The position numbers were made by a program, and so were the translations under genes. Shown piece by piece: positions 1 to 62,572 of a stretch of 64,000 nucleotides of DNA. Source of the DNA: a virus (Duplodnaviria; Caudoviricetes); IMG/VR virus record IMGVR_UViG_3300012983_000040, positions 22,315 to 86,314 of that record; one strand, written 5' to 3'. Each line of letters begins with the position of its first letter. The first letter of the stretch is position 1. Under the pieces are notes generated by a model that saw nothing but the letters and a program-made list of their open reading frames with translations, was not told where the DNA came from and made no database searches.

Positions 1-3000
1 AGTATTATTCCAGTACTAATTCTTTACTGCATTTATAATTTCCGTAGGATTTCGAGTGTAGTTTCCATTCGCGTCTTTTAAAGAATCGTAAGTTGAACCT
101 ACTGGTTGAATTAGACCTGTTCTATTGTTTAATCCTAATGCAAGAGCATCGTTTACCATTGAAGATAATGTTACAATGATTCCTTCAGAAAATGAACCTT
201 CCCACTAGTAAAAAGGAACTAATATAGATTTATTAATTAACTCTTCTTTAGTCACTGGTGGCTAATCAAATAATATGTTTCCATTATTATCTACCTAATA
301 GTAATAATAATTTCGCACCTCTTCCCCATCTTTAATAATAGGTTTACCCTATTCATCTAAAGCTATCTCACTATAATGAGTAAACCATCCTCTGTCCTTT
401 ACAGAACTTATGGCAAACCACTAGTTTTTCTTACCTGACCAATATGTATTCATCTGCCAGAATAAAGCACCTAAAAGACTAGCTTGCATCAAAGCTCGCT
501 TTTCGTGTGAATAGTAGCCATAAAGTTTATCTGCCATTGACTTATATGATCTAGCTTGTTTATTAGTATAAGCTTGGGGTAATGGTTTGTATACGCCTTT
601 CTTCGGTGGTTCTAGTTTAAATTTAGTTCCGTCTGGATATATAGCACCTTCAATTTCAAATTGTTTAGCCATAGCTCTGTATAAAGCTTCTTGTTCTCTA
701 TACTTTGGGTTATTAACATCTCCTTTTACTAGAGTACTAAATCTTGGATCTCGATTAAAATCATAAATTAATTCTCCATCTTCATTTAAATAATGGGCTT
801 CATAAGTGCCATCGTGTCTCATATATGACTCGAAAATAGTCATTCTGTTATAAAAGTCTGGTCTAGATGCAAATCTGAATATAAAACTATTAGTATTTCT
901 AAAAATGTTATGTGAATTTTGAAGGTGTTCTGCATATACATTAATGTCCATATCATTGATTCTATATAGCTAGTTTAATCTTTCTAACTTTGTAGGTCTA
1001 TAATCAAACTTTGTCATTTCTTTATATACATCTACAAATGAAGCAACCATTTCAGTAAGAGTGAATCCAAATCTTCCATCTTCGTTTCTCCATATTATTC
1101 CAATATCCTTATAAATACCTTCAAGTAACTGATAAATTTGTTTTGGGTTAAATCCAAGAGTAACTACAGATGCTAAGTGCATAATTTTCTAAGCATACTC
1201 ATATATCTGCAAATCTTTATCATCCATAACTTTTCTACCTAACATAAGAAGAACATTATCTTTTAAGTATTCTAGTTCTGCCTCTCTTTTTATATTTTGA
1301 GAAAACTCCTAAAATATTAAATCAGCGTGTGCTGCTTTAATTAGAGTAAACGCTTTTTCTGATTCTTCTTTCATTTTATACGCAAATAGATGCTTTAAGA
1401 AAACTGATTGTAAGTCATGATCATATAAACTTAAATCTTTTAGTAGTTCTGCTCGTTGTCTCGGGTCTTCTCCCTAGTCAAATCTAGTCCTCATTACATA
1501 TAAGTCGTCTCGTAACTATTTTCCTTCTGGAGTTAAGAGATGCCCCATTTCTTTTTTTATTCTATCTTTAACTACATTCCATTTCCAAGATAAAAAGTAA
1601 TCCTTAGCTGCCGCTAATAAACCTTCTGTCTCCAATTTTCCTGCTGTTCCTTTATATGATAGTGGTACTCTAAGCCAGGCCAAATTTCCTTTTTCCAGCT
1701 CTTGTACCATTCTAGCTTCAAAGGCGATATCAGTTTCTCCTCTTTTTTTAAATCTATTAGAATTAATTGTTTTAATTACATACTTTAAGAATTTTCTTTC
1801 AGTAGCTGACAATCTGGTGTTATTAGCATATGGATTTACAAATACCCAATCTTCATCAGGCTTCCTAGTTTTATAATTAGTCATGTTTTCGTAAATTCTT
1901 ACTGAGTTTTGGAAAGTAGAATCCCCTAAATATGAAATTTTATTTTCTTTTTTAAGTTCAATTACCATTTTCTGTACTAATGCATGTGGTTTTTGCATAC
2001 TATCCGTAACTCTTTTATAGCAGTTGTCAATAAATTCTGTAATTTTATTTAAATTTTTGCTGGCCGTAGTACCAGGGTTATCAGTTTTAAGTCCTGAGTG
2101 TCCTTTAAGTAGTATATTGTTAGAATCTCTCCAGTTATCATATGCTTCAATTTGTTGTTCAAAATCATATCCTAATTCTTCAGCATATGCCCTATGTAAC
2201 ATTTGATACTACATATCTATTTCATCATCTGTTACATCAAAATCTAATCTTTGTAATTCTTTACCAGCGATTCCTTCTCTTATTGATTCCATTGACTTAA
2301 TTGCTTCATATAAAACTTCTGCCATAGAACCAAGTGGTTTTCCTTGATCATTTCCAACAATGTCAATTTCATTATTTTTATTTAAAAATAAGTTTTCTAT
2401 AGGAGTAAGACATTTATTTACTATTAGGTTATTTACTTTAAGATTTCTACCTTGTCTATCGTTTTCGACTATTTTTGTTCCAGTTCTTAATGTATCCAAA
2501 GCCTACTCTGCCATTGTGCAAAATTTTATGTCTCCTTTATGTCCACTATAGTTAATTCTATTAGGTCCAAACTCTTTATCAATATTTTTATACTTATTTA
2601 AAATTTTAAAAGAGTTTAATAACTATTTATTAGAAGCTGTAAGCCCACTATTTAAAAATGGATTAATTACCTTTATACTATGTATTTTTGATCCTTTAAA
2701 AATTTCAGTAGGAACAAAATTTAAAGCTAAAAGTGTTTCTATCATTGCCACATTACCGTGAACTGCATTTAGTAATGTTGCCTCTCCAGCTTTATCTACA
2801 ATATCGTTTATTCCTAATGCTTGTGTAATTAATTTATTTACATTTCTTCTATCTACTTGTCCATCAGTTCGTTCATGTGTAAATTTAATTACTTCAATAT
2901 TTTTTGTATATTTATTTTTTAGTAAAACAATACCCATTGCTTCTAGTACAGCAGGAATTTCTCCACTGTCTCCATATCCAATGACTTCATATTGTCCATT

Positions 3001-4623
3001 TCTAGTATACTTCCTAATAACTTTATCGTACCATTGAGCATCGCCATCTTGATGTTCTAATCTATTTGATGTATTAATAGTTAATTCTGTTTGATTATGA
3101 ACAGCTTCTTTAAAATTCTTTGCAGATGTTCCAACTCGACGTTCACATTGAGATAAGTATGCTTGTATTTTTGAAATAAGATCTAATTTAGATTTACCAT
3201 AAATAGTTTTTTCCCTTACCTTATAAGAAAATCTTTGTTCTATATCTTCTGCATCTGGATTTTCTTTATATTTATGATTTGGGTCCTCTATAAATTCTTG
3301 TATGTCTTTAATGGACCAGCTAATTTCTTTAGACTTATATGCAGTAAACCACCCTAAAAGAGTGTTCTTTATTTTTTTTAGTATATCCTAGTCATCTAAC
3401 TAGGCAATAGCTACATCGACAAATATAGTATCGATATTATCCTAAATGTGATTATACGACACTTCATTCTTAGTTAAATCATCGATTAGGGGTTTATTAG
3501 TTTCAATGTTTTTAAAATTCCAATTTCCGTCTGTTCGTGTATATCCTACTAACTATATTGGAGCAACAAGTACACTAATATTTCTAAAAGTAGGATTTAT
3601 TTTTCTTAGCATACGTGCATAGGTTGCTAATTGATATGTAAAAGCTCGTTTTTTAGCAGAACTATATTCATCTGGTGCTAAATCTTCTACTGCTACATCA
3701 CTTTCGGCTTCTCGCCAATAATCTGCAGGTGATACTTTATAATCTATAATAAAAGCATCGCCCTCTGGTGGTACAACTAATAAATCAATCATACCTGAGA
3801 GATTAACATTTTCATTTTTTGATGGATCGTGGGCAGTAGTTCTTAAAGATAATTCTGGAAAATATAAAAAGTGTCCAGTACCTTTAGGATCGTAAGTAGA
3901 TTCTATTGTAACTTTTAATTTTTTACAATAATCTATTACTTGTTTCATCTATTTTTCAGAAAGTAGAGCTTTAGTTTCTGGTAAGGCACGTTTTTTAAAA
4001 ATATTTAGTATATGATTTGAATCTAAATCTCCAAATATTGAAAAATTATTATCTTTAAAAGATTGCCTACTAAAGAATATTTCACAGAGATTATGAATTG
4101 CAGTACCTACTTTAGCTTCGTGTTCCCATTTTTCTTTTTCTATTTTAATCAATCTGTCAATTAATTCTTGGGCCATTATTGACGGAGTATTTCCATCTTT
4201 AAATTCAGGTTCTTCTGCAAAATCAGCTAATTCTTTTTCTGTAAATCTTTTTCCTGTAGAATTTCTCCAAGATTCTATTCTTGTATTAAAATAATTTTCT
4301 TCTATAAATTCTGGAAATATTAATTTTCCTTCTATTCTCAAGCCTGATAGAAATTTTGTTACCTAGGTACGTGTTTTATCAATTATTTCAGTACTCTAGG
4401 ACTATTTATTATATGATCTGACACTGTTATAATTTTTATAATCTTTACTTTTTCTAACTATAGGTTCAAGCTAATCAATAGTATTTAATTGAGATAGGGT
4501 ATGTTCTTGGAATACTGTATCTCCATACTTATCTAGTAACTTATCTCCACCTGATAGTAAAAAATCGTCTAGTTCTATCTCAGAATTAAACAATATATTT
4601 TTATAATAATGTTTACAATTCAT
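1..4623 (-). CDS. Giant virion cargo protein (runs off the left edge, >1540 aa, TAG=Gln) containing a PD-(D/E)XK RecB/Cas4-like nuclease domain
   Basis: ATG at 4623 (MNCKHYYK...). Fragments 421-951, 970-1182, 1516-2202, 2209-2499, 2623-2937, 3553-3948 and 3949-4341 are all in one frame; the fragment stops I checked are TAG and the frame stays open from 421 to the window edge. Motifs KVGTAIHNLCE, SGMIDLLV, IIDYK and YQLATY. Confidence 0.85.
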
Positions 4624-4624
4624 A

Positions 4625-5701
4625 TTAACATATTTCTTTTAATTTTCCTGATTTTAATAAGTCAGATTTATAATTATTTAGTAATCTGTGAATAAATGAG
4701 TTGCTCATTGTTCCTGTCATACTATTAAATATTTCTCTAGAATTTACTAATTTAGCAACTTTTTCAAGAGTTGATTTATAAAGTATATTACTGTCAATAA
4801 TTTTATTACTAAAGTCTCCATTTAATATACTATCTAGTAGTCTTCTAATATTATAATCAAGTTCATATTTTTGAGCATTAGACATTTTGGAGAAAGAAGA
4901 TTCTCTTCCTGCAAAGAATTTTCCTAATTCTTCAACTAAAACTTCTTCAGCTCTATCCATTTCAGTTCTATGTCTGAATTGGTTCATTTTGTATCTAATA
5001 TTTTCATCTTGAAGAACAATATTAAGTAAATCCTAATATAACTTTGGGTTTTCAAATCTAATGCCTCCCATAAAAAGATGCATAAGTTCATGAATTTTAG
5101 TGTCAGGAGTTGCATTATCAGTATTAATATATATTTCTCCATTCCTAATAAAACCTCTTAGTGTGGCTGCTCCAGGAAAATCGGGTAAAGTTGCTATATC
5201 TTTAGTAGTAACCTCATTAATTTTTATTCCATGCATCTCCTATGCTCGAGTTAATAAGTTACTAACTGCTCTATGTGCAATTGGCATATCCGAGACGGGA
5301 TCTATTTCTTTTGGAGTTATAGATGGACGTTTCTAGGCATTTATTAATACTTCATCGTCTATAATATTAATTTCAAAATTGTAATCTTTATGCAGTTTAT
5401 TTAATTCTTGAGCAATTTCTACTTCAGTTTCCTTTCCAGTATATTTTTTAACTAGCTCTAAAGAAGTATAGTAATTATCTCCTATAGGGTTTAATTTTAA
5501 TCTATTTTTTAGCTATGTAAATGAGTCCACCCCTATATTAGGGGGGAACTCATCTACATTAGGCAATCTATTAAAATCGTGTAGCCATTTGTCAACGATT
5601 GAGTAAAATAATTCTTCCTACTCTTTAGTATATGAGTCTGGAAGTATCTGTTGTTTTAACTCTTTAACCTAATTAATGTCTGTAATATCACAAAAATACA
5701 T
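4625..5701 (-). CDS. Zincin-like metallopeptidase (HEXXH), 358 aa, TAG=Gln
   Basis: ATG at 5701 (MYFCDITD...), TAA at 4625; fragments 5033-5236 and 4625-4987 are in frame. Motif RNGEIYIN...DTKIHELMHLF (5078-5092) with downstream AEEVLVEE. Confidence 0.85.
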
Positions 5702-5702
5702 A

Positions 5703-8700
5703 TTATATACAATTTTCTCTTATCATAGTAGAAGCCTTAGCCACAATAGCTAAAGGATTTACTTTAAAAATAAAACCTCCATTTTTATCTATTCCAACTT
5801 TTAATATCTTTTTTAATTCTTTTTCTGAAATAGTTAGTTCCTTATTATACACTTTATTGTTGAACGAATTTAATTTAATAGTAACTTCAGTTTTATTATT
5901 ATTTTTTATTAATTTAGCTGAAGCTACTCCATTTCCAAATCTTATTGAAGAGTATTTATCAAAATTAACTTCCGTGTCCATTTCTGGTGTATCATAATTG
6001 GATGTCCATACATTATCTACTAAGAAATAGTCATACTATCCCATATACCCATATGCCATTCTAGAACCTTCAAATTCATCTATTTCTTCATTATCAACTT
6101 TTTCAGTTTTATTTAATTTGTATATATCATATCGTAATGTCTATCTATTAAATCTATAATAATAAGGAATGTTTTTACTAGAAGCATTGGCGGCATTTAG
6201 TTCTGTATCGTGAGGAGCTAAAGCTATTTCCAACATTTCTGTAGTATAATCTACTCCTTGCTAGAAGTCATAATTAGTATCCATATGTCCAATAAAGTCA
6301 TAATAACGTTTAACCGCATTATCTTCATTAGTTTTAACAAATGGCTCAAACATAGGAGTCAAAGATTTACCTCCACTCTCGTTTCTAAAATTGATTAAAT
6401 TATAGTAAAATAGTAAATCTGCAATATTATATCCATTATCATCAGAAACTTTATAACGTTTTGTTCTTAAATCAAACAAGTCCATTTGATATTTAGAGAA
6501 AGCGTCCTATTCTACATCTGATTTTGGAATCATATCTATTGGAAGTGTATGTACAGTAATATTATTTCTATCTGCTGTTCTATTAGAATATGATTTAATT
6601 AAATCTCTTAAAAATGTATTTACGTTTGTCCCGTCAGCACCTAACACTCTAATTGTTTCTTTATTCTATTTTTGTGTGACACTAGGAGAGAATAATAGTC
6701 CTTGTTTAGATAATCGAGGTAGAACTTCTGTATTCATCCAGACCCTAAATGTTTCATTCCCTTCTCTTGTACCTAATTCAATATAAGTTGGTGTATCATA
6801 TACTTTATAATCCATTGGATTAATTGGTCCTTCACCATCAGGTTTACTAAATATTTTATTGTGGGCTGGAATTTCTATATAACTTACTTCTTCTCTTAAA
6901 AATGCATTAGTCATTAAACTGTTAATCCAAGTTTCTCCCTTTTTATAGAAAGTTTCTGCTTTTTTACCTGTTAATCGCAGTTTATTAGAAACAAAAGGTA
7001 GTATGACTTTTAACATCATTCTATCTTTTAGAGAATTTCCAGTTTGTGCAAATATAACATTTGCAGTCTATAAATACTAATTAAAGTGTGGGACATTTGT
7101 TGCTACCCATAGAGGATTAAATGACTATTTTATATAATCATCGTAGGCTTTAATAACTTTATTTCTATAACTAAGATCTTTAAAAAACTTCCAAAAATCT
7201 ATTAGAAGATCATCATTTTCTAATAATTCTGCGATAGTTTCTTTTGTTTCCTTAGATAAGTTCTTTCTTTGAGCTCCTTCTTTAATTATTCTAGTAAAGT
7301 TATTATAAAATCTATAGGCTTCTTCAGTCTTTGTTTTTTGTCCTTGATTTAGTCCTAAAAGCTCACGTAGTTTTCCCATTTCATGTTCACCTGCTTCTAG
7401 AGTTTTAAGATTTTCTAAATCCGCCCACATGTTTCCTCGTATTTTCTACTCTTGAGTTTCAGGGTCTAATTCATATCCAAATTCTTTTATATGTGAATCC
7501 GCTATTTCATGAATTGCGACAGCATATGATATTAGATTATCTATACTACGTTTTCTTGATATCTCATCGTAACTATACCCTCGATTTCGATAATTATTTT
7601 CTTTATATTTACGTTTATCTGCTGCCTTTACTCCTTCATTTAATTGAATTCTTCCTTTTAAAAGTTTAAGTCTCTATAAGTATTTATTGAATTCTCCAGT
7701 CTTTGTTACCTCTATTACTGTATCACGGACTCCATTCTTTCCTTTTAAAATAAAGAGAGAATCTAGTGATTTACCATCAAACTCAATTCCTTGTATACCT
7801 AATCCTAATTCATTAAACTAAGTATTCATTAATTTTAAAGCAGTAGTAGAAATATTAGTATTAGTTAAAGTCTTCCTATCTTTACTTAAAATATCAAGTA
7901 TTTTAGAAGCATATTTAGTAGAACCACCATCGGTAAATATGTTTGACTTCATCATTCTAGATAATACCTGTGCTGTTTGAGAAGTCATTATTTTGAAAAT
8001 ATCTTCAAATTCCATACCTATAGCAATACCATATAAATATAATCCAGCTAAATCTGAACCAGCATTTAAACGTTCTAATTTTAACTCTTTAGCATTATCT
8101 GTCGCTAGTGTCATAATTCCTGAATCGTTAGATCCTGCCCATTCTGTATGGTTTATTGACCGCTCATATAATGCATTAGCAATATCATTAGGAACTCCTT
8201 TAGATACTAGTTTATCTATTATTTCCTATTTAGTTCCTTCTCCAAGATAAATATCTGGTAAGGAATAATAGTGTTTATCAGTTCCATTTTTACTCTTGAT
8301 TACAACATCAAATAGTATATTACTTATGTTTGCATTATTCGCAATAGCATTATTAGTTGCCTAAGTAGTTGTGTGAAGAACTTTCATTCCAGCAGATGCG
8401 GCTATACCAATAACACCTTTTCCTGTATGGTTCTAGTTTAAAGCAGCTCCCATAATAGAACTATTTCCAGGTCTACTATCCTATGGTCTAGCACCTACAT
8501 TAGAATCTTCTCCTAACTATTTAGGTTTAGCAGCACTCTAATCTACTGTAGTTCCGGCAGCTATTGCGTTTGCAGGAGCTTCTGCAATTTCTATAGTTTT
8601 CCAAGCTACGAAATTTTTTGATATATTCGTTTTTTCTTCCTTATTTACAACATTAATATAATTATTGTGTTTATTAATGAATACTTGGAGAGCTAATACT

Positions 8701-19700: not shown

Positions 19701-22700
19701 TTTCTAAATCGTTATATTTATTAGTATATGCAGTTACTACGTATCGCATTGAGAGTTCTTCAAGAGTACATTTATTAGTTCCTGATAAATTTCCTAACTC
19801 TAATAGATCATATATATTATTTAAAATGTCTTTATTATCTTCTGTACGTACATAATGATGTATTAATGTGATTATTTTAATAAGTTGATTTTCTATAGCT
19901 GTCTTTTCTTCATTAGATAAGTTTCCACTTTCTAACTTCTAAAAATCAATATCTAAATAATCTGTCTTTCCCATTAATTTAGCTAACTGTCTAAAACCAT
20001 ATACACAGTCGCGTCTAGCCTCTATATCTGTACGATTAGATAAAAGTCCATCTGTTGTTAGACCTGTACGTAAAGCATTAAAGGTATATAGAACATAATT
20101 TAGGAATTCTGCTTCAGTTTCAATTTCCTTTCCATTTTCATTAATCCATTTTGTTTTTTTATTTTTTGTAGTTTGTATTGTAATTGGATGTTTTTCTTCC
20201 AGTGTTTTACTTTCATGTATAGATAAATTAGAGAATCCTGAAAGGCCTAACTACTCTCCACCTTGTTCTGGCTCAGTTGGATCGATTTTATGTCCTTTTA
20301 CTTCAAATTCAGCTCCATTGGTTCCAGTACCATTAGAACTTCCAGGTGTTACTTCTCCTGAAGTTCCATTACTTTCAGAAGCCTAATTTTCTTGGGTTTT
20401 AATTTTTATTGTTTCAGGAAACATTTCCTACAATAACTATTTAAAGTCCTGTGACCTCTTTGCCACAAATGACTCGGGCATAGCTATTTCTTGTGTGTTT
20501 GAATCTGGATCATGGTTTGCTAATTCTAAGTTGGGAACATTTCCTGTAATATTATCAATGATTACTGTTCCTTTCTTTTGTCTTGTTAATCCAGTATAAT
20601 ATTCTCGTAATAACCTTTCTATTTCAGGAGCATCTTTTTGATTAAATCTAGTTGAAAATCTAATATCATTTAAGTCAATAATATAATAATTGTTTTCTGA
20701 ACTTTTAAGGGTAGTTCCTTTTCTAAATTCAGTTTTATTTTTCCACTCTGGATGCTCTTCAGTTATATATTTATACGCAAGACTATTATCATTTGAATAT
20801 ATTAATGTAACTTTTTCTCCATCTTTCAGAGTTTTATACATTCCATTAATGTATTTTTTTGCATTAGCATCTAAAGTTGCACCTGGAGAAATATAGGTTC
20901 CGTAAAAGTTTTCATTCTATTCATCAAAATAATAATGTGCTGTGTATTTGCCTTGAATTGTTTCCTCTGCTCCTGTAAAAAAGTTAATAGCCCCCTCAAT
21001 AAAAGCACGCAGGGTAGTGTTATTTACATCTGTCTATGTATTTGTACTACGATAAGATAACTAACTCTTAAAGCTTCTAATAAATTGTACATCTCTAAGT
21101 CCTAAATTGTGAGTTTCTAATATAGGATTTTCAGCCTAATCTTTTTCTCCTTCATTTACTTTTATCGTTCCGTAAATACCAGACTGTGTAAAGTCGCCAT
21201 GTGCTAATACAATAATTCCATTTTTAGTAGCAAAATCATCAAGAACTGTCATATCGAATTGTGAAAATTCTGAAATTTCATCGACAATTATAATTTTTGG
21301 AAGCTGACTTAAACCTGTATTTAATTCATAGTCAAATTTTACATCACCGGTTTCATAATCCAATTCAAATATTTTTTCAGTTCCATCGCTATTTTTTCCA
21401 GTTAATTTACCATCAGTTACTTTGAATGTTTCATCATAGGAATCAAAATTCTTAAGAATCATTTTCATTAAAGTCTCTCGTGTAAAAGTCTTAGAATCTT
21501 TAGCACCAATGCTATCTCTCATTTCTATAGCTTTAGCTTCTGGAGTATCTCCACTAGTATTTTCTGGACCACATATCCATAACCTTTTATTTTTATCAAA
21601 ATTAGGTACTATCTTTTCTATAAGACTAACTAATTCAGGAATATATGTGGATTTACCGAATCCTGGTCCAGAACTAACCAGCACAGTACTTTTAAATTTT
21701 GGATTTAAAAATAATGATAAGAATTCCCTAGCAAATTTTTTCTATTCTTCTTCTCTTTTAACTAAATCTTCACTTGTTAAATCTGGATAGTCTACCTTAT
21801 AACTTTCTATATATGCTTTCCTAAAATTTTCAAACATTTTAGGATTTACAATCATAGAAATTGCTGTATATTTCCATGCAGTCTAAATAGCTGATGGAAG
21901 TCTATTTTCATGTAATGAATCTTTTAGATTACTATAGAAAACTTTTGGATCTAATGCAGCAATAGAAGCTAAATACCACATTATAGCTGAGTCATCTTCA
22001 AGTTTATCTGATTTATTAAGTGCAACAATTCTATCTGTAAATGTAAAATTCTTTTTACTAATAAAATCAGCTAACTTAGTCGGATCATTTAATATTTCCT
22101 AATTTTTACTAAAGAATTTGTGTAATGCTATCTCAAAACTAATAAGCTCTTTAGTTATAGCTTCTTTTACTTCTTCAGATGTTGAATCCAATCTATGTTC
22201 TACCTATTGATCCTTTAAATTATTAAAGTTAGTTAGTTTTGATATAGCATTTTTAAATTCGGATATGCCATTCCAGTTTAGTTTAGATTCATTTTCAAGA
22301 ATACTAATTTTATTAGCAATCTATCCCATTAGATTCAATCTAAAACCTAAGTCTGCCCTATCCATAACTTCTGTCCTAAGCTACATTGCATTAGAGGCAA
22401 CTTCTTTCCAATAAAGTAGTTTATATATTGAATTTTGTATATTGTCAATTCCTTCTGCTACTCTGTCAGCTGAAATTGTTATTAGCTTTTCTGGGATAAG
22501 TTCTGATTTAGTTTCTTGTGATAGCTTATTTGCTGTAGCATTAAATCCTATATGATTAAATATAGATTCTACTTCTTCTGTTGCAGCAGCATAACTACTT
22601 CTCAGCATCTGTAAAATCAATATAGCATCATTAATATCAGAAATTAATGTATTAGATAAGATAAATTCATCAGTTTTTGTTAATCTATCCATTAAAAAGC

Positions 22701-52426: not shown

Positions 52427-53548
52427 TTATTTTGATTGTTGCTATTGTTGAGCTGGAGGCGCAATAGTCTAATTTATTGGAATGTTAGTTTGAAGTCTAG
52501 GGTCACTAGCATTCTCCATAACGAGTTTTACCAGCCCATTTATAATCTCCTAACATACATAATCTGGAAATTCCATGATCTATGATGTGTCTTGTGTCTT
52601 ATCTAGCTATTCTTGTGTTAGCCTTATATATTGTGGGGTTCTAAGATAGTCTACCATAACCTAAATTGGTTCAAAAGTATCACTATCTTTACCATATCTT
52701 ATTTCCATTCTAACTGCAGAAGCATTTCCATATCTTTTTCCTGCATAATGTTCCACCTAGTCTGGGTAAGGGCTACCTTCTGTATTCCTTGGATCGTTAA
52801 TCTTCTCAGAGTAGACGCTCCTAGATAGTCCCGACAAATTTACAGTTACATGATCGTCAACTTTATTTACATAAACCTTTGGGTCTACACCTTTTCCTAG
52901 TGGTGTTAATGGATCTGGATTGTTAATTAGTTGATTTATATCAGCAATACTTACTTCTCCATCATTATTGACATCATAATATGTATTAGTTTCACCTCTT
53001 GCAATAGCATCTTTTATTTCCTATGGAGTACGTCTCCCAATATATGGATTTTCCTAAAAGTCTTCTTCTGACCTGTTATTTACATTATGAATATAAAAGT
53101 ATGGACGCTTATATGATGGGCACATATAGGCATTATTTACTATAAGAGGCCACATATCTGCAGTTAGTCTTCGTGCAGGAAATTCTTGCACTGTTCCACT
53201 ATTATAACAGCTATAGCTTTGTTTTACTTTAAATGTAACCATACAGTTAAGTATATGATAATAGTCCTATGGTAAAGTAACTTCCCACAAATTTTGGTAA
53301 TTACTTCCAATTCCATTATCACCATAAACCGCAGAACTAACTTTTTTAGGAGTTAAAAACGCAGTTGACTTTAAAACTCTTAAACTATCTGAAAAATTTT
53401 GATTTGCATCATAATTATTATAGTTAAGATTAATAAACTAACTAATGGCTTTATTTAAAAAATAATTATAATCCTCTAAAAGCAAGCTGGGAGCTTCAAC
53501 TTTATTTAACTCCGTGAGCATTGCTTCATATATAGCTCTTGCTGTCAT
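52427..53548 (-). CDS. Ring/neck structural protein, 373 aa, with an inserted dockerin/EF-hand-like motif, TAG=Gln
   Basis: MTARAIYEAMLTELNKVEAPSLLLEDYNYFLNKAIS...VDYLRTPQYIRL...EFPDYVCQEIIN; TAA at 52427. Confidence 0.68.
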
Positions 53549-53559
53549 TGTTTGATAAA

Positions 53560-54393
53560 TTATTGTTTGTCTTGTTTATCTTTCTTTTTTGGTTCCATTT
53601 CTGGATAAGTATCTCTCTTAATAAGTTCAAGTACTTTTTTATTTTTTGGATCTTTTAAGAATGCAAGAACGGAATCTTCTGATACTCCTAGAATAATCTC
53701 GTCTGCGTAAGTAAAAACTTTATTCTTAACTACTATAACACTCTTTTCTCTAGCCTCAATAATAAGAAGTCTAAGGCCAGTATCTGAACCTGAGTATACA
53801 TCTATAATCTTTTTAGGATCTTTAGCAGCGATTCCAAGTAGATATTCGGTAACTTCTGAATCTGGAGCATTTTTCATGTTCTTACCCAAAAGTCTAGCGA
53901 TAAATACTCGACCTTCAGCACCTTTAGCATCGTCAAAAATATACTCTTCCGCATCATGGCGAAGTTTTAGAGTGTTAACTTTCTTAGCTACTTCTACACC
54001 GGGAGCCTCAACATAAAGTTCAGCAACTCCATAACGTGCATGTGTTTTTCCTTCTGCGATTTCTCCATCTATTAATAGATTGCCTTTTGAATCTCTAGCG
54101 TCTCTCGACGGTGCAATGATAGGAGCATATTTGATACATTCCCATTCTGCATTATCGTAAGGATCTTCCAAATTTAATTGTAATCCATCTTGTACTTCAT
54201 AAACTTTATTCTCTGGAACTAATACTCTTCCAGAATTTCTATCATCATCAGACATAATCATATCGCCCATACTGTTGATTCTGCGAACACAATCAGGATA
54301 ACGCCCCGTCTTGGGATCTTTTACAGGCTAAATATAATAAATCTGACCTACTTTACCATAAACACTTCTTAAAACAATAATGTTTTTATCCAT
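53560..54393 (-). CDS. Conserved crAss-like protein immediately downstream of MCP, 277 aa; one TAG at codon 22
   Basis: ATG at 54393 (MDKNIIVLRSVYGKVGQIYYI[TAG]PVKDPKTG...) extends track ORF 53560-54270. Confidence 0.8.
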
Positions 54394-54497: not shown

Positions 54498-57400
54498 CAA
54501 TTTGTTACCTACTAGGCTCTTTATCCTAGTATTCTATAGTTTCTTAGTTAGGTTATTGCTATAGTTCAGACTATATCATCATCTATTTAAGATGTCGGGC
54601 ACTCGTGTTAGGATTATTGTGTATGCTACTCACCTATTAGTCGTTAGAGGTTTACTGTACTTTTATGCATTTCCAGTACTTCCTACGGGATTGTCCACCT
54701 CTGGAGATTCCCCGTTTTCACCCGATTTGCTACTGACGTCACCATCAGAAGCCTCATAGTTTTTTATTTTATATGTTTTATGATAGATCCATCCAGAATT
54801 ACAATATTTTCTCATATGATTGGGATTACACTCTGGGTGTAATTTACAGAAATCAGTAAGAGACATAACCACACTTTCATTAGTTTGAACATTTTCTATT
54901 ATTCTTAACTTTTGGTGTGCTTTTGATATTTTATCTCTTGTTTCTTGGCTGTATTTTTTGCCACGATGAAAATCACCAATTTTCTTTTTAGCTTCTTCAG
55001 AAATTATTCTACCCTTGAGTTTTTCTGAAATTGCTTTTTTGGTTTCTTCTGTATGATGTTTACCAAACATACCATTTCTTTCTCCAAACATTTTTCTTTT
55101 TTCTATCCACTCCGGAGTTTGTTTAACCCCAGTACAGTCTGGAGTATAATCAAAATATTGATTTATACATTTTGGATCATCTTTAACTTCTTTTAATCTT
55201 TTCACTTCTCCTCCATTTGCTAATTTACGAGTAGCAAAAGTTTCTAAAATCTGTTTTTCTAGGTCATGTCTGTGTTCTTTAATGTAAAGTTTAGTCAATA
55301 TAGAACTAGATCCCATATATGGATCATCTTCAATTTTACATTTACAACTTCTAACGCCTATATAAAACTCTCCTGTTTTAGTATTTAAAATTTTATAATT
55401 ATAATGATACATAATATTATTTTTATTAGTACAAATTTATATAAACTTCTATACTAAAACAAGTGTTCTTCACGAAAAATGAAAAAATTAAGTAGAAGTT
55501 AAGATATTAGCTCTATCTTAATATAAAACTTCTATAAGGATTGAATACAGCGATTCCACTGTAACCCCAGTTGATAAGTTTAGAACCAGCAACTGTAGAA
55601 GCTACTAGACCTGAACTTAGACCATCTAAACCACCAACACCTGGTAATTTGTTGCTGATGAAGTCACCACCCTTTAGGGTGAACATCTCGATAGCGGGAG
55701 TACCACTAGTCTTGTCAGCAGTAAGGTCTAAGAATAAACCAAATCCCTTATTATCGCCATACTCGCGGCTGAATGTCCGATCTACCTTAAATGAAATTGT
55801 ATTACCTGCAAACTCATAAGAATCGAAGGTGGCGCCCACATTTACATAGCCGTTAGCTGCCTTAGACCATAGATAAGTGCCACAGGTCTTAAAGTTAGCT
55901 AGCCAAGCACTAAGATTTCTCTGAACATCATGCCACATCTTCTCATTGCAGAGGAAAATGAACTTATTACCAGTAGCAGATTCTGCCTTCTGACACATCA
56001 TGCTCATGGCAGTCTGGAATGCATCAACAGTAAGAATAGTATAAACATACTTAGATGCAAAACGTTCTACCTGAGGAATAATACCATCGCCAATGTAAAT
56101 GGGACGACCAGTGTCAGGATCAGAGATAGTGGCCTTACCATTCTTATCAACGTTGCACTTGTTGAAAAGTAGACCATTATTTCTTACATATAAGAAGTTC
56201 TGAAGAAGGTTCTTCTCAACAGTATCCATCTTATAGATAGTTTCACTCATCTTGCCGTTGCCTTCACCCTTGCCAATAGAAATAAATACATTTTCCATTG
56301 CTTTATAAAGAGCTGAGTAAGTATCGTCAACACGGTGAGTAGAAATATAACCTCTATGTTTCTCTACGTTTGATTGATACTTAACATACATTTTGTTAAT
56401 CAATATGTTGCCATATTGTTCAGACTATATCTTAATCTAAATATTTAAATACAAACCCTTTACAATGATCTCGTTTTCCTAATGCTACTTGTTTTGCATT
56501 TTTATATCCTGCTTTAACACAGTCAGTCATTGTATTAAATGTCTCTAAGAGATTTCCGTCATCGTCAAACTTTCCAACTTTACCTCCTGCGTATGGTTTC
56601 TCTACTCCATTCATATTTCTATGTTTTAATTTCTTCATAAATGGTAACTTTTCATAAGAGAATTGGTGCCCTAGAAACTGGTGTCCTTCTTTAATTGCTC
56701 TTGGTAAGTGCCCTGCTCCTTTTGCTGATGGATTTAAAAATCTTCCAGCAGAATTTACACTATCAAATTCTCTTTCAAAATTACCATCTAAATCATACAT
56801 ATAAACTTTCTTTCTTGGATTTGCACAATCTGGCAATCTGCCTCCAAGTGCTAGGTTATAAACATCCTCACGTTTAAGAAATTCTTCATTTACTAGTTGT
56901 TCTTCTAGTTTATATGCTTCTTTTTCTACATCAAATATTTGTAAAGTTGTTCTAATAAAATTCTTTACTCCATACTTTTTTACTGCATACTGAAAAGGAG
57001 TTTTTGGATTCATATAACTAGCTGGCCTATAAATACTTACACCATTTCCTATGTACCCATCAAAAGCTTCTGGAGTTTCTGTTCCATGAACACCAATATA
57101 AATTTTATTATTTATTTTATTAACTGTTTGATATACTATATATTTCATTGTATTTAAATTTTAGATTTATTCCATTTCGGAGTTTATTTCTCCTACGTCC
57201 TTCGGACTAGTCGTTGAACCTTCCTTGGTACTTCTCTTCGAGCTTGTAATGCCCAAGGCTTGGCTGCTGATTGTCCTTAACTTAAGGAGTTCCCAGCAAT
57301 TAGAAATATTTTTTTAATTTTACACTGCTTAAGCAGCGGAAGAGAGCTATGTTAGGTATATGATGTTCTAACCCTCTTCGTGTAATTCAGGCCATTATGC

Positions 57401-60400
57401 TTTATGTTACCATAAAGATTAGACTATATCATTTACTTAATATTAATTTTTAAGTAAATACCCATTTCAATTATCAATATATTTGTATATATATCCTTTA
57501 TGTTTTTGATATTTGCCTGACAAAACATTTTGGACAGCTCCTCCAACTTCTTTTGCACACTGTCTAGCAGAATCCCATTGTTTTAAAATATTACCATAAT
57601 CATCTATTTGAGCTACTCTTTTTTTCCTATTTTTTGGAGTACTCGGCTTGTTATAATTTTTTAATTTTTCCAAACCCCAAATGTTTCCTTGTTCATCTGG
57701 TTGTTTTAACTTAATAGCTTTAGTAATATTACAATGAGGATTTTTTAATTGTGCTTCTTGCTGAGTTTCAAATTCTTCTAGAAATTCTCCATTTGAATTG
57801 TACTTAAATACTTGTCTGGAAGAAATTTGCAATGATCTGGCTTTATCAAATGATTCCGCTTTTATAAAAGAAAAGTAATATGATAGTTTAACACAATATC
57901 CTAATTTGGTAGCTTGCATTATATTAGCTGGTGCCGTATTTGAATATCTTCCAGCTTCACCATAGGATTCAAATTCTCTATCAAATTCTCCAGTCTTTAA
58001 ATATCTATAAACTTTCTGTTTATTTATATTATTTGTATAATTTGATAAATCTATTTGATCTAGCCTATCAGTATTAAAATATGTATTTTTTATTCTATAC
58101 TTATATACAACTGCTCGTCTTATTGATGACGGTTGGACATTTAATTCATGCCCTGCAACTTCGTATGATGGATATTCTTTTAAAAATAATCCATTTTCAT
58201 CATATTGAAATACTTTTATACCTTCAGTACAATTAATAATTCCTCCTAAAATCATATTATAAACATCATTTCTGGCTAGAAAATTTTCATTTACTATATG
58301 TCCTTCTAGTTCATAGGCTTCTTCTTTTGTATCAAAGGTAGCAATAACTTCTCTCTTAAAGTTTGAAGTTCCATATTCTTTTACTGCTTGTTGAAACTTC
58401 GTTTTTGCTTTTTCATAAGATGTAGGTACATTAATATAAACTCCATTTCCTAAGTACATATCAAATTGTTCAGGATTTGCTGTTCCATGTACTCCTACAT
58501 ATATAAAGCCATTTATTAAATTCGTTGTTTTATATACAATATATTTCATAATTTACGCCTTGCGGCTAGTCGTTGAACGTTATACAATTTATTTATCTAT
58601 AGAATTACTTCCATGTATTAAAATTAAATTATATCTTCGCTGCTGATTGTCCTTTATTTTTTATAAAGGAGTTTCCAGCAATTAAAGTATTTTTATTTCT
58701 ATTAGTCACCTAATAGTGCCACACTCAAAAACTACACGAAAAGTTTTTCAATGGCATTACTCTAAAATCTAGTAGTATCGCCGACGTGATATTCGTCTGG
58801 ATCAATATGATCTGATAAATCAGTGGTAATTAGTCTACATTCTAGTACCCAGTAATCATCAGCCTTACGAATTGGTCTACTAATGCATTGGAACTATTGA
58901 TAAGTGTTGTCCGATTTCCAAATATCATACTTCTGATAGTAATTTTCCTTAAATGCGAAGAAGATTGAAGTACCGTTAGCACCATCGCCTTCTGGAGTGG
59001 CTGCTAACTCAACTCTTTTAATGTACAAATTATTTTTAATAATTTAGACTATATCATTTACTATTTGTGTGATACTTAAATATATAATCATTAAAGTACC
59101 TATTTCCCTATTGTATATTTTTTATTTTAGAAGCTGGAACTTTATACTTTTCTTTTACTTCTTTTATAGTTTCTAAAGTTTCTATAAAGTTCCCGAATTT
59201 GTCGAATACATCTACCATTATTTTATTTTTCCATTTTTTGTCAGGTACTTGTTCTATTTCTTCTAAAGAAATATAAAAGTCTTTGTACCATCCTTTATTA
59301 TCCCTTAGAATATCTCGTATACGATTCCAAGAGTTTAATTTTATAATAGGCATTAGCTCTTTTCCAACAAATTCACCGTAGAATTTATTATTTTTGTCAT
59401 ACACATAGAATTTCATATTAATATACTATATTCGTGGTTTTGGAATAAATATATCGACTAGTTTGTCTGAAACATAATATTTACCATCGAGTAAACTCTA
59501 TCGTTGTATAGCTGTGCATATAGTACATTCGTCTTTCCCTATAAAGTCTCCACATTCTTTTCTTGATATAAATTCCATTAACCATTTACCTTCTTTTGAA
59601 TACAAATGGGTTACTTTTGGAGATCCCCAAGGAATAGTAGAATATTCAGAAACATCAATTGTTTCTTTTGTACTCCAAAGTGAATCTACTAGTGGATGTT
59701 TATCATGTATAGCATATTCAAATTTTTCCATAGGAATACCATAAAAATCATATGCTTCTATTGAATAGTCCCAAACCTTCTAAAGATTTCCATTTAGATC
59801 GAATTGATATAATTTTTTGTAATTATTATATGATATTCCACCTAAACATGCATTATATGTGTAATCTAATTTCAAAAAATTTATGTCTACAAGTTCTTTT
59901 TCTTTATTATAAGCCTCTTCTTTTGTGTCAAAAATAAATAAAGTAGTTCTTTCAAATGCAGCAGTTCCATATTTCTTTACTGCGTACTAAAATGGAGTTT
60001 TCGGATACATATATGTTGAGGGCTAGTTTATATATACTCCACACCCAATATATCCATCAAAAATACTTGGATCATTTGTCTAGTGTACTCCAATATATAT
60101 TCTATTGTTTCCATTTATTTTACTTTCTTTATTTTTAGTTAAATATACAATATATTTCATAGTAATTCAGTTTTTCAGTTAATTAATAACTTACGGGTCT
60201 CCCCTAGTCGTTGAACGCTTCTGTCATCACAGACACGCTGCTGATTTGCTATTGCATTCCAGCAATTTAAAGAATTATTCGATGCAACTTACGCTGCAAA
60301 GGAACCACGTTGATTCGTTTCCACTTCCCATTCAAAATACATACTATCAATACTTCTATATTTATCACTCGACTTAGAGTCACGGTAGAAAATGTTTCTA

Positions 60401-61456
60401 AGAGATTCTGTTAAATATGAAGCAGTCAATTCTGGATATAGCCTTGATACAATGCCTAATCTAGTAGGCTTAGTACCTAAAAACTTATAAAAATCTTCAT
60501 AAGTGCGAGTTTCCAATTATGTTACCATAAAGTCATTTAAACTTTATTTCTTATACTTTATCATCGTATAAGTTCAGACTATATCATCATCTCAGTGAGA
60601 TGTCTTGCACTCGTGTCAAATATCAATTACTTTGTAAGACATACTTGGTATTTTTTCTAATACATACTATCTAATTAAATTCAAGAATTTTCTACCTTCT
60701 GTAGTTCCGCATCTAAGCATAAACTAATCTTCATTTCCGCCATCAGCTTTAACTACATTCCATGTTATTCCATACTTGTTTAGAAAAAATTCTCGAAGTA
60801 ATAAATTCTGCTCAAATGGGAGATATGTAAAAATTCTTAACATATGACCACATTCTATGCGTTTTCCTTCTTTATATGTATATTTTTTTGAAACACATCC
60901 ATCATCTAACCACCAAAGAACTAAAGTTTCTAAATCTATAAATTCTAACAATTCTTTTGTTATTTCTTTTTTACCATTTCTATACAATAATTCTCTAATT
61001 GGTATAAATGATTTAGATTGTTTTCTAAATTTATAAGTGATAAAAGTATTACTCTTATACTATTTTCCATCTTTTCTTACAGAATGTGTTCTTTCCAGTT
61101 TATGAACTTTTATATCTTTTCCTCCGCAAACTGAATGAAGTAATTTCGCTTTAAAAGTACAATACTCTTTCTATTTCTCACAGTGTTCTACTTCTATTCT
61201 ACCTTTTTCACTTATATATCCATCACCAAGTAAAAGTCCAATCAAAATGGACATATCTTTATTAGTTATTCTCATAATAAACTTCTTAATATTTGTTAGT
61301 CGTTGAACTTTCCCATCCAAGGGCTTAGCTGCTGATTACCCGATAACTTGAAGGGCTCCCAGCAATTCACAAGATTTGCATATATCATTGCTGATATATG
61401 GGGCAAAATTACTTACCCATCGTAGGGCGTTTTGTAATAAAATTTGCTACAATCAT
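54469..61456 (-). CDS. Major capsid protein, 473 aa after splicing: join complement(61415-61456, 60313-60513, 58751-59025, 57371-57392, 55536-56388, 54469-54497)
   Basis: Exons total 1422 nt and join in frame to MIVANFITKRPTMG|ETRTYEDF...EWEVETN|YIKRVEL...TTRFQSNAM|PELHEEG|YVKYQSNVEKHR...GIAVFNPY|RSFILREA*, which matches the crAss-like MCP sequence as I recall it. Every 5' exon ends in U and every intron ends in G. Confidence 0.9.
54663..55412 (-). CDS. Intron-encoded GIY-YIG homing endonuclease with NUMOD3 repeats, 249 aa, no TAG
   Basis: YHYNYKILNTKTGEFYIGVR...YMGSS; NGMFGKHHTEETKKAISEKLKG and similar NUMOD3 motifs. Confidence 0.85.
   Translation of the reverse strand: MYHYNYKILNTKTGEFYIGVRSCKCKIEDDPYMGSSSILTKLYIKEHRHDLEKQILETFATRKLANGGEVKRLKEVKDDPKCINQYFDYTPDCTGVKQTPEWIEKRKMFGERNGMFGKHHTEETKKAISEKLKGRIISEEAKKKIGDFHRGKKYSQETRDKISKAHQKLRIIENVQTNESVVMSLTDFCKLHPECNPNHMRKYCNSGWIYHKTYKIKNYEASDGDVSSKSGENGESPEVDNPVGSTGNA
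55432..55463 (-). promoter_or_regulatory. Possible intron-internal Bacteroidetes-type promoter for the intron-5 endonuclease
   Basis: Minus strand CTTG-20 nt-TAAATTTG, about 20 nt upstream of the 55412 ATG. The -7 box matches; the -33 box has one mismatch. Confidence 0.45.
55536..56388 (-). CDS. MCP exon 5 (853 nt)
   Basis: YVKYQSNVEKHRGYISTHRVDD...GIAVFNP-T|. Confidence 0.9.
56389..57370 (-). mobile_element. Group I intron 4 of MCP (982 nt), ORF in L8
   Basis: 9-bp P1 (exon GAAGAGGGU with GCUCUCUUC, U-G at the splice site). AATTGCTGGGAA, ACAATCAGCAGC, GGTTCAACGACTA and AAGATATAGTCTG. P8 strands AATCTAAAATTTAAATAC / GTATTTAAATATTTAGATT flank the ORF. P9 has a GCAA loop. Confidence 0.92.
56432..57148 (-). 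CDS. Intron-encoded GIY-YIG homing endonuclease with two NUMOD1-like modules, 238 aa, no TAG
   Basis: MKYIVYQTVNKINNKIYIGVH; KVYMYDLDGNFEREFDS and KVGKFDDDGNLLETF repeats. Confidence 0.9.
   Translation of the reverse strand: MKYIVYQTVNKINNKIYIGVHGTETPEAFDGYIGNGVSIYRPASYMNPKTPFQYAVKKYGVKNFIRTTLQIFDVEKEAYKLEEQLVNEEFLKREDVYNLALGGRLPDCANPRKKVYMYDLDGNFEREFDSVNSAGRFLNPSAKGAGHLPRAIKEGHQFLGHQFSYEKLPFMKKLKHRNMNGVEKPYAGGKVGKFDDDGNLLETFNTMTDCVKAGYKNAKQVALGKRDHCKGFVFKYLD
57371..57392 (-). CDS. MCP exon 4, 22-nt micro-exon
   Basis: G CCT GAA TTA CAC GAA GAG GGT; completes the AT|G codon and gives MPELHEEG. Confidence 0.85.
57393..58750 (-). mobile_element. Group I intron 3 of MCP (1358 nt)
   Basis: P1 exon UGCCAU with GUGGCA (U-G at the splice site); P2 CTATTAG-GTGA-CTAATAG. 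AATTGCTGGAAA, ACAATCAGCAGC, GTTCAACGACTA and ATGATATAGTCT. P9 TTATG-GTAA-CATAA; terminal G. Confidence 0.92.
57467..58549 (-). CDS. Intron-encoded GIY-YIG homing endonuclease with four NUMOD1-like modules, 360 aa, no TAG
   Basis: MKYIVYKTTNLINGFIYVGVH; repeats KVFQYDENG, KVYRYLKTG, QVFKYNSNG and RVAQIDDYG. Confidence 0.9.
   Translation of the reverse strand: MKYIVYKTTNLINGFIYVGVHGTANPEQFDMYLGNGVYINVPTSYEKAKTKFQQAVKEYGTSNFKREVIATFDTKEEAYELEGHIVNENFLARNDVYNMILGGIINCTEGIKVFQYDENGLFLKEYPSYEVAGHELNVQPSSIRRAVVYKYRIKNTYFNTDRLDQIDLSNYTNNINKQKVYRYLKTGEFDREFESYGEAGRYSNTAPANIMQATKLGYCVKLSYYFSFIKAESFDKARSLQISSRQVFKYNSNGEFLEEFETQQEAQLKNPHCNITKAIKLKQPDEQGNIWGLEKLKNYNKPSTPKNRKKRVAQIDDYGNILKQWDSARQCAKEVGGAVQNVLSGKYQKHKGYIYKYIDN
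58751..59025 (-). CDS. MCP exon 3 (275 nt, two TAG codons; absent from the ORF track)
   Basis: YIKRVELAATPEGDGANGT...GDTTRF[TAG]SNA-AT|. Confidence 0.87.
59026..60312 (-). mobile_element. Group I intron 2 of MCP (1287 nt)
   Basis: AAATTGCTGGAA, AAATCAGCAGC, GTTCAACGACTA and ATGATATAGTCT; P2 has a GTAA loop; terminal G precedes TACATTAAAAGA. Confidence 0.9.
59054..60160 (-). CDS. Intron-encoded GIY-YIG homing endonuclease, 368 aa, TAG=Gln
   Basis: MKYIVYLTKNKESKINGNNRIYIGVH[TAG]TNDPSIFDGYIGCG...PKTPF[TAG]YAVKKYG; joins fragments 59498-59731 and 59108-59416; TGA lies inside the intron S element. Confidence 0.87.
60313..60513 (-). CDS. MCP exon 2 (67 codons)
   Basis: ETRTYEDFYKFLGTKP...EWEVETN. 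Confidence 0.88.
60514..61414 (-). mobile_element. Group I intron 1 of MCP (901 nt)
   Basis: P2 ATATATCA-GCAA-TGATATAT. GAATTGCTGGGA, GTAATCAGCAGC, GTTCAACGACTA and GATGATATAGTCTG. P3 TCTTG/CAAGA; P9 TTATG-GTAA-CATAA; terminal G. Confidence 0.9.
60616..61275 (-). CDS. Intron-encoded two-motif LAGLIDADG homing endonuclease, 219 aa, TAG=Gln (4 TAGs)
   Basis: ILIGLLLGDGYIS and LVLWWLDDGCVS motifs; ATG at 61275, TGA at 60616. Confidence 0.88.
61415..61456 (-). CDS. MCP exon 1 (14 codons)
   Basis: MIVANFITKRPTMG, followed by intron sequence AAG TAA. Confidence 0.85.
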
Positions 61457-61473
61457 AATTTAAAATTTAAATG

Positions 61474-62541
61474 TTAATCTAAAAAATCGTCAATATCATT
61501 AATACTTATTTCTCCGTTTTTAGGCTAAGCTTTCCGCTTACGTACTACTGACTTAGCCTTTGCCTAGTTATAGGATCTTCCACCTTTAGCGTCCTCATAA
61601 CCTCTGTTATAGTTGTTTTTTGCAACTTCTGAAATCTTTTGTTTATAATAACTACTTAGTTGTGCAAACATCTCTGGGCCCTTAATATTCATCCAGGCCA
61701 TTCTGACTAGTTGATCTGGGTCAGCTAATGTGTTATTAATTAGCCTATTTCCTTTTTTATCATACCCAGTTAGGAAATTATATATATCACGTTTATCTTC
61801 ATCTTGTAACTCTAGATCTAAATCGCCAAGATCTATAACTGAAGCTCTGTTAATAGCATCATAAATAGAACGCTGGTACTATTCTTGTTGCTGCTGCTAT
61901 TGCCTTTGAACTTCTTCCTATTGCTGTTGATTATATAAATCTTCTTTTTGTTTATAGTCTGTGCGTAGACTTTGTACTTTTTTATTAAACAAATCTTCAT
62001 TTTGCTGTGATCTGTCTAACTCTTCTAAAGCTTCGTCTTCAGTTATATCTGGGATTCTTGACTTCAAATCTACAAGAAATAGTTCTTCATCTGACAAGTC
62101 ATCAATCTTATATGTTTGTTCTTGTGGTTGCTATGCAGCAGTGTACTACTCAATTGCTTGTTGGGCGATGTACTGATTATAATCCTAAACAGACCAATTA
62201 TTAGTACGCATAAAATTAAGTAGTCCAATTTCCTAATCATCTAGATCTGAATCATCTTCAGATAGAGAATTTAGAATAGATAACTAATCTTCATCATTTA
62301 AATCGTTAAAGTCAGAAGTTTCTTCTCCGTCTTCAGTTTCAAATTTTACAGCTCGGGGATCTACACCTTTTCCTCGTAGAAATTCTTCCAGAGCGGATCC
62401 CTCAAAAGAGGACTCTTCCCCTTCTTGAAGTTGTTCTTCTTCTCCAGGATTATCTAAATCTTCAGTTGTTTGCATCTAGGAAGATACTTCCTCATCATCT
62501 TCCATAAAGTCTTCTAAGTTATCAATTTCATTAATATCCAT
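61474..62541 (-). CDS. Acidic, Gln-rich protein upstream of MCP (putative scaffold), 355 aa, TAG=Gln
   Basis: MDINEIDNLEDFMEDDEEVSS[TAG]MQTTED...; TAA at 61474; position directly before MCP. Confidence 0.68.
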
Positions 62542-62572
62542 ATAACATTAATTCATTTTAATTGTTTGTTCG

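Follow-up and report, generated by a model that had tools for sequence, protein, structure and literature searches.

A 64,000-nucleotide stretch of viral DNA (IMG/VR record IMGVR_UViG_3300012983_000040, positions 22,315 to 86,314; hereafter the window) carries on its minus strand a capsid gene divided into six exons by five introns (Table 1). The source of this DNA is a gut crAss-like phage with a large genome (about 171 kb), in which the codon TAG is read as glutamine. The exon map of the gene was drawn with the guidance of an uninterrupted homologue of 473 amino acids, P0002, and its fourth exon (E4), which lies between introns 3 and 4, comprises only 22 nt, GCCTGAATTACACGAAGAGGGT. Intron 3 is inserted inside codon 173 and intron 4 between codons 180 and 181, so that the two insertion points are 22 bp apart, and each of the two introns contains an open reading frame (ORF) that resembles homing endonuclease genes.

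When exons E1 to E5 are joined, they form an open frame, with TAG read as Gln, whose translation departs from P0002 at 5 of 472 positions (about 99% identity) and reads ...SNAMPELHEEGYVKYQ... across the micro-exon, the predicted spliced peptide over this region being NAMPELHEEGYVK. In the intronless DNA allele L001, whose protein is 99% identical, the same 22 nt are contiguous with both neighbouring exons and show 2 differences; since this match to homologue DNA (20/22) lies in the right place and in frame, it is not a product of chance. The junctions are unique solutions, with E3 ending in U, intron 3 in G, E4 in U and intron 4 in G. Because E3 ends in GCC AT and E4 starts with G CCT, a single join restores the ATG. 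A first-pass annotation of the window had placed an exon of 22 nt between two introns at this position and had claimed that its first G completes a Met codon split as AT|G, that it encodes a conserved MPELHEEG and that its omission would shift the capsid frame. All of these claims held: the joined frame matches P0002 and the 22 nt are contiguous in L001, the split codon is that of Met173 and is interrupted by intron 3, the peptide is kept in homologues, and 22 is not a multiple of 3.

Furthermore, the stretch that runs from intron 3 over the micro-exon into the first part of intron 4 recurs in a second assembly as part of a 171-kb contig (L090/L092, 99.99% identical) and, at 100% identity, in a 1373-nt contig from another run (L091). 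Two other ways of reading the segment were tried and rejected. A twintron was ruled out because the 22 nt are coding, are conserved in all homologues and are contiguous in intronless alleles, and because the core of each intron is complete in itself. A shift of the junctions by 1-2 nt at the duplicated TA beside intron 4 was ruled out because the last intron base would then not be G. Together, our data make it highly probable that the 22 nt are a genuine internal exon, created by two mobile group I introns homing 22 bp apart.

The identity of the two introns was examined by covariance models, sequence comparison and structure. A U before the 5' splice site that forms a U.G pair in the splice-site helix P1, and a G as the last intron base, hold at all four junctions of introns 3 and 4. 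The part of intron 4 that precedes its ORF (57345-57149) matches the Rfam model RF00028 with 53.5 bits (gathering score 50; E 3.5e-13) over model positions 1-176, the match stopping at the ORF. In L117, a relative whose capsid protein is 55-65% identical, ORF-less orthologues occupy both sites and give full-model RF00028 matches of 92.4 bits (intron 3) and 85.6 bits (intron 4). As a positive control, the experimentally spliced introns of the ribonucleotide reductase gene of phage phiNIT1 scored 94 and 42.7 bits with the same model, and they have in common with the window introns the core motifs AAUUGCUGGGAAC..CAAUCAGCAGC..GUUCAACGACUA..GAUAUAGUCU and, after these, a hairpin closed by a GNRA loop. 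By blastn, the core of intron 4 matches introns in 439 phage records, with the phiNIT1 region at 84.8%, and introns 3 and 4 are similar to each other in core sequence.

For intron 4, seven loci were aligned without the ORF on a hand-drawn structure (P1, P2, P4-P6b, P7, P7.1, P7.2, P8, P9, P10), and 19 of 80 pairs over 14 helices showed two-sided compensatory changes, with nearly no broken pairs. For intron 3, the window was compared with L085 (71.5% identical) by eye and without a tally; the stems P2, P7.1, P8 and P9 differ between the two and stay complementary. By these sequence features, both flanks of the micro-exon are group I introns. The core motifs of the T4 td intron, which encodes I-TevI, presumably resemble those of the window introns (AACGACUA ... 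GAUAUAGUC ... terminal AAUG). The td intron is a group IA intron with the GIY-YIG-type endonuclease I-TevI, and it homes by double-strand-break repair with co-conversion of the flanking exon; it stands alone in its gene, and the loop that contains its ORF is not the one used in the window introns.

The endonuclease genes of introns 3 and 4 (Table 1) both encode a NUMOD1 domain according to Pfam, and the intron 3 ORF in addition contains a NUMOD-like domain of the I-HmuI type. PHROG families 314 and 19446, annotated as 'homing endonuclease', match the ORFs with E values of 1e-23 to 1e-27; the intron 4 ORF matches PHROG 314 with E 6.9e-27, and the intron 3 ORF matches PHROG 314, 19446 and 5123, the match to PHROG 5123 ('with GIY-YIG motif') being weak (E 0.001). 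Motifs resembling GIY-YIG (KYIVY...IY[VI]GVH) can be read in the endonuclease ORFs, and the endonuclease of intron 4 gave no useful match when its sequence was searched against the PDB. Both ORFs are predicted to encode endonucleases that are active, and it is a reasonable inference from the 22-bp spacing that their targets overlap.

The exon bases around the two introns were then compared with the guide sequences inside the introns. The first-pass annotation had assigned the last 9 nt of the micro-exon to the 5' strand of P1 of intron 4, and this assignment is borne out: GAAGAGGGU pairs at all nine positions, terminal U.G included, with GCUCUCUUC at intron positions 24-32, six orthologues keep the helix, and in L097 the exon GAAGAAGGU and the guide GCUUUCUUC differ from GAAGAGGGU/GCUCUCUUC by a G-C to A-U compensatory change. 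The P10 helix of intron 4 is formed by ACAUA, just 5' of the P1 guide, and the first five bases of exon 5 (UAUGU); by manual reading, exon 5 of L117 starts with UACAU and the guide is AUGU, which would add two compensatory changes. The exon bases at this site follow the intron, being GAG GGT|TAT GTT when intron 4 is present and GAA GGA|TAC GTC when it is absent, and the former supply the U of the splice-site wobble, one P1 pair and one P10 pair. In intron 3, the last 6 nt of exon 3 (UGCCAU) pair in P1 with the guide GUGGCA, and position -3, the wobble base of an Ala codon, is C, U or G among orthologues, with guide position 3 being G, A or C to match.

To reconstruct the history of the two insertions, we surveyed 85 related loci and added targeted look-ups. 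At 81 loci neither site contains an intron (70 are uninterrupted, 9 have only an intron at residue 413/414, and 2 are single-hit loci with incomplete gene coverage). Intron 4 alone is present in L079/L086, L087, L088, L089, L093-L096 and L097-L100; the endonuclease protein of L093-L096 is the same as that of the window, at 95-97% nucleotide identity, and L097-L100 are more distant. Intron 3 alone is present in L085/L105, in L112 (closest clade) and in the contig that encodes P0060; there, an endonuclease gene of 360 aa lies directly upstream of an ORF beginning MHEEGYVKYQ. Both introns occur together only in the window's genome (L090/L092 included) and in the short fragment L091. Pattern scans of IMG/VR and metagenome contigs yielded no further allele with intron 3, the micro-exon and the intron 4 guide GCTCTCTTC. 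When the pattern for the junction at the 3' end of intron 3 was relaxed, 17 stretches matched, among which L105, L112, L116 and L117 were the only capsid genes. Seven protein clusters begin with MYVKYQSN, which corresponds to an ATG at the end of intron 4, indicating wide occupancy of the intron 4 site. The protein P0019, which begins with MPEAHEEG, is a candidate for the product of an intron-3-only allele.

A comparison of the window with the intron-4-only allele L093 located the sequence differences between them. Exon 3 differs at 12 of the 57 nt that precede the intron 3 site (21%) and at 14 of the other 218 nt; the micro-exon has a single mismatch, and the 305 nt of intron 4 that follow it have none. 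L093 has its upstream variants in common with the intronless L001, and over the final 20 nt of exon 3 the window is identical to the intron-3-only L112. As its sequence reads, the micro-exon is a mosaic, in which the upstream neighbourhood travels with intron 3 and the last bases (G19, U22) travel with intron 4. Most likely, intron 3 entered an allele that already contained intron 4, and the repair tract ended inside the 22 nt; alternatively, loss of intron 3 in the L093 lineage may give the same pattern. The close relatives L093-L096 are without introns 3 and 5, and near-identical strains that lack both contain introns 1, 2 and 4, which fits introns 3 and 5 being recent arrivals; intron 4 is not obviously so. 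The first-pass annotation had expected the acquisition of the two introns to be coupled through co-conversion. This expectation stands in part: the flank variants of each intron do meet inside the micro-exon, but the insertions are separable, as each intron exists alone in relatives.

Based on these observations, we propose that the capsid gene was entered in separate homing events by two distinct mobile group I introns, both of which brought an endonuclease gene of their own. The guide GUGGCA of intron 3 pairs with the last 6 nt of exon 3. In intron 4, GCUCUCUUC forms P1 with the final 9 nt of the micro-exon, and ACAUA forms P10 with the first 5 nt of exon 5. With a guide of its own, each ribozyme could set its own splice sites, and the two reactions together would restore ...NAMPELHEEGYVKYQ... 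in the capsid message. In the window's lineage, intron 3 would have joined an allele with intron 4, leaving the downstream recombination junction within the micro-exon.

Several points weigh against this reading. Rfam gave no group I match on the whole window at gathering scores, nor on a 12-kb stretch at E up to 10, and a match in the window introns was obtained only after the ORF had been cut away; the whole-window miss is attributed to the large ORFs that interrupt the introns, such as the 717-nt ORF in P8 of intron 4. For intron 3, the part before the ORF reached 38.8 bits with RF00028 (E 7.5e-9, model positions 51-156), under the gathering score of 50. The Pfam GIY-YIG domain was not matched by either ORF at E up to 0.01. 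Intron 3 of L112 is only about 87% identical to that of the window, which means that L112 itself did not donate the intron. Whether intron 3 was gained in the window's lineage or lost in that of L093 is deduced by parsimony against L001 and L112. Splicing in vivo and its order are likewise predicted from the DNA.

The intron 3 score under the threshold, together with the predicted status of splicing in the window and the heavy load that five introns place on one essential gene, could be taken to mean that the allele is dead or bypassed, one or both introns no longer splicing, the allele being non-functional or otherwise expressed, and the 22 nt being a relic. We consider this very unlikely. 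A tblastn search with P0002 matched only this locus in the window, with no second capsid gene; the exons are conserved at the protein level, nearly all differences from L001 being synonymous; the helices are all maintained via compensatory changes; the exon bases next to the introns are those that P1 and P10 require; and the genome was recovered from several samples. Even less probable is an assembly chimera, in which intron-3-only and intron-4-only strains were fused through the shared 22 nt and no molecule contains both introns. Both single-intron alleles do occur in nature, and the pattern scans gave no other identical double arrangement, only a differently arranged relative. However, the same junction is found in the 171-kb contig of another assembly and in the contig of a separate run at 99.99-100% identity, and L117 independently has introns on both sides of the same segment. 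Moreover, the shared stretch of 22 nt is shorter than the assembler words (the contig name 'k141' suggests 141, and the word of the Logan assembly we take to be 31), so that words spanning the micro-exon come from reads that hold both intron ends.

A different matter is whether a micro-exon this short could serve both ribozymes only in an obligatory order or by cooperation, or whether frequent skipping holds back capsid production. In Twort and SIOphi, exon skipping has been documented for similar group I introns that lie next to each other (PMC11878797, PMC3073962). Introns 3 and 4 have common core sequence, and the 9-nt exon of L117 pairs with intron 4 in P1 and, by manual reading, may pair with the intron upstream in P10. 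Against this, intron 4 of the window requires just the last 9 nt of the micro-exon, and its P1 is present in the minimum-energy fold with intron 3 retained or removed; intron 3 has no conserved P10 with the micro-exon, since manual reading gave 5 of 6 weak pairs in the window and none in L085. We therefore regard ordered or cooperative splicing as unlikely in the window, and the coupling of splicing order suggested by the first-pass annotation left no sign here. If the micro-exon were skipped, 22 nt would be lost and the frame destroyed, so skipping would be purely harmful. A genuine micro-exon between two introns that each define their own splice sites is the reading that we prefer.

The relatives L117 and L116 extend the picture. 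In L117, three group I introns (Rfam 92.4, 53.6 and 85.6 bits) lie inside the same 22 nt and leave exons of 13 nt and 9 nt between them (Table 1), the joined frame reading ...NAMPEMHEEGYIKYQ... The 9-nt exon is, by manual reading, essentially the whole 5' strand of the intron 4 P1, with 8 pairs to GCUCUCUU, and its first five bases could pair with the guide of the middle intron as a possible P10. In L116 (minus strand), intron 3, with its 3' junction at 1118, is followed at a distance of 40 nt by a group-I-like intron, which is inserted after ...TATTAGAGT, where the window has none. The sites of the window, L117 and L116 therefore add up to at least four insertion sites within 40 nt of the capsid gene. 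We tentatively suggest, as a possibility rather than an expectation, that codons 173-187 are a homing hot spot in which related introns compete for sites 9-22 bp apart. Neighbouring introns would break each other's targets and a resident intron would protect its allele, so that double and triple alleles could arise only via rare crossovers in the micro-exon, and a 9-nt exon used for P10 and then for P1 would impose an order on splicing. If this were true, these capsid alleles would be a natural system for intron-against-intron exclusion and ordered ribozyme splicing in phage.

Table 1. Exons, introns and endonuclease genes of the capsid genes in the window and in the relative L117
Sequence	Feature	Coordinates	Strand	Details
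Window	Capsid E1	61456-61415	minus	
Window	Capsid intron 1	61414-60514	minus	LAGLIDADG ORF
Window	Capsid E2	60513-60313	minus	
Window	Capsid intron 2	60312-59026	minus	
Window	Capsid E3	59025-58751	minus	275 nt; ends ...AAT GCC AT; Met173 codon split after AT
Window	Capsid intron 3	58750-57393	minus	predicted group I, 1358 nt; guide GUGGCA 58722-58717; terminal G 57393
Window	Endonuclease gene of intron 3	57467-58549	minus	360 aa, no TAG; between the P7/P7.1 region and the proposed P3' strand (manual reading)
Window	Capsid E4, micro-exon GCCUGAAUUACACGAAGAGGGU	57392-57371	minus	22 nt; encodes (M)PELHEEG
Window	Capsid intron 4	57370-56389	minus	predicted group I, 982 nt; P1 guide GCUCUCUUC 57347-57339; P10 guide ACAUA 57352-57348; terminal G 56389
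Window	Endonuclease gene of intron 4	56432-57148	minus	238 aa, no TAG; in the P8 loop; last codons form the 3' strand of P8
Window	Capsid E5	56388-55536	minus	first 5 nt UAUGU pair with the intron 4 P10 guide
Window	Capsid intron 5	55535-54498	minus	
Window	Capsid E6	54497-54469	minus	
L117	Three introns and the exons between them	4466-6037	minus	
L117	Intron 3	6037-5810 (Rfam match), last G 5798	minus	ORF-less
L117	Exon GCCCGAGATGCAT	5797-5785	minus	13 nt
L117	Third intron	5784-4687	minus	with endonuclease ORF
L117	Exon GAAGAGGGT	4686-4678	minus	9 nt
L117	Intron 4	4677-4466	minus	ORF-less

The G+C content of the window is about 30%, and its genes lie on the minus strand. TAG must be a sense codon for long frames to exist, as in the frames 52427-53575 and 61474-62547 with 11 TAGs apiece, and the database proteins of capsid homologues on other contigs are reproduced only with TAG read as Q. 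The precomputed Pfam domain PF23898 (Crass_capsid) is present on homologues, including the 99%-identical P0002 and the window's exon 5 product P0001, and the window's genome has Crass_capsid and CrAss_Ring_1 genes, the latter lying downstream of the capsid gene in related contigs. ARAGORN found no tRNA gene in the 64-kb window, and a TAG suppressor tRNA is therefore expected elsewhere in the genome. Among the endonuclease ORFs within 54663-61275, in-frame TAG codons are confined to those of intron 1 (4 codons) and intron 2 (7 codons) and are absent from those of introns 3, 4 and 5.

Other introns of the capsid gene also deserve description. Intron 5 (window 55535-54469 region) opens with a 29-nt near-copy of the last exon; the unspliced RNA would encode ...RSFILR(TAG)S* and the spliced RNA ...RSFILREA*, as in P0002, and the intron is wholly absent from the near-identical strains L093 and L095. 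A sixth capsid intron site at residue 413/414, unoccupied in the window, contains an intron of about 0.9-1.4 kb in 11 IMG/VR loci in all (L064-L074), and the proteins P0096, P0113 and P0118 terminate by read-through into this intron (...PAILSNVWVAAA).

Intron-rich capsid genes have been described in the Zeta group of crAss-like phages, whose genomes measure 145-192 kb and combine recoded stop codons with group I introns at an 'unprecedented' density, one capsid gene of the group being in five pieces (Yutin et al. 2021, PMC7886860; example cMAG OLRF01000054). The window's phage would belong to this group, as judged by its fit to the published description rather than by a tree. Like the gene studied here, the Zeta-group genes are crAss-type capsid genes split by endonuclease-bearing group I introns, with recoding and a very high intron load; the introns in that study were found via protein domains and ORF fragments, and exons this small, splice pairings and presence or absence in populations are unreported there (PMC7886860). 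In Bacillus phage phiNIT1, two group I introns in the gene for the large subunit of ribonucleotide reductase enclose a small exon, which was found only by cDNA reads (PMC11878797). The introns are of the same sequence type as those of the window, and there too a short exon lies between two phage introns. That exon measures roughly 100 nt by Rfam coordinates (L102 2671-2772, hits in 2421-3133), which fits the 'additional small exon' of the cDNA report (PMC11878797), compared with 22 nt in the window. Different from the window introns, which carry ORFs, the phiNIT1 introns are ORF-less and have been shown by experiment to splice.

In orf142 of Staphylococcus phage Twort and in phage SIOphi, one gene contains several similar group I introns and exons can be skipped (Landthaler & Shub 1999 as cited in PMC11878797, PMC3073962). 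As in the window, a structural or core phage gene there has neighbouring related introns, and joining of the first 5' site to the second 3' site loses the internal exon; whereas Twort and SIOphi skip exons, skipping in the window would drop 22 nt and break the frame. In placozoan mitochondria, cox1 contains a single-nucleotide micro-exon between two group IB introns (PMC5436844). Similar to the window, this micro-exon comes from a second intron inserting beside a first, and it is needed for the frame and a conserved residue. Different from the window, the placozoan case is organellar, involves other intron subgroups and is fixed across a phylum, whereas the state in the window is polymorphic among close phages and its steps can be reconstructed.

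The micro-exon of the window is an extreme case of these published phenomena, namely intron-rich capsids, short exons between phage introns and organellar micro-exons, and it involves no new mechanism. No single part is new, and the value lies in the extreme spacing, in the availability of all intermediate allele states and in the insertion hot spot to which these alleles point. Exons of 22, 13 and 9 nt escape protein-based gene calling, and in these abundant gut phages the capsid gene is therefore mis-called as frameshifted or truncated unless splice sites are modelled. The natural series of alleles in close phages, with no intron, intron 3, intron 4, both or three introns, is a ready-made experiment, which could test mutual blocking of targets, the minimal homology tract that resolves homing and the ability of ribozymes to share a very short exon.

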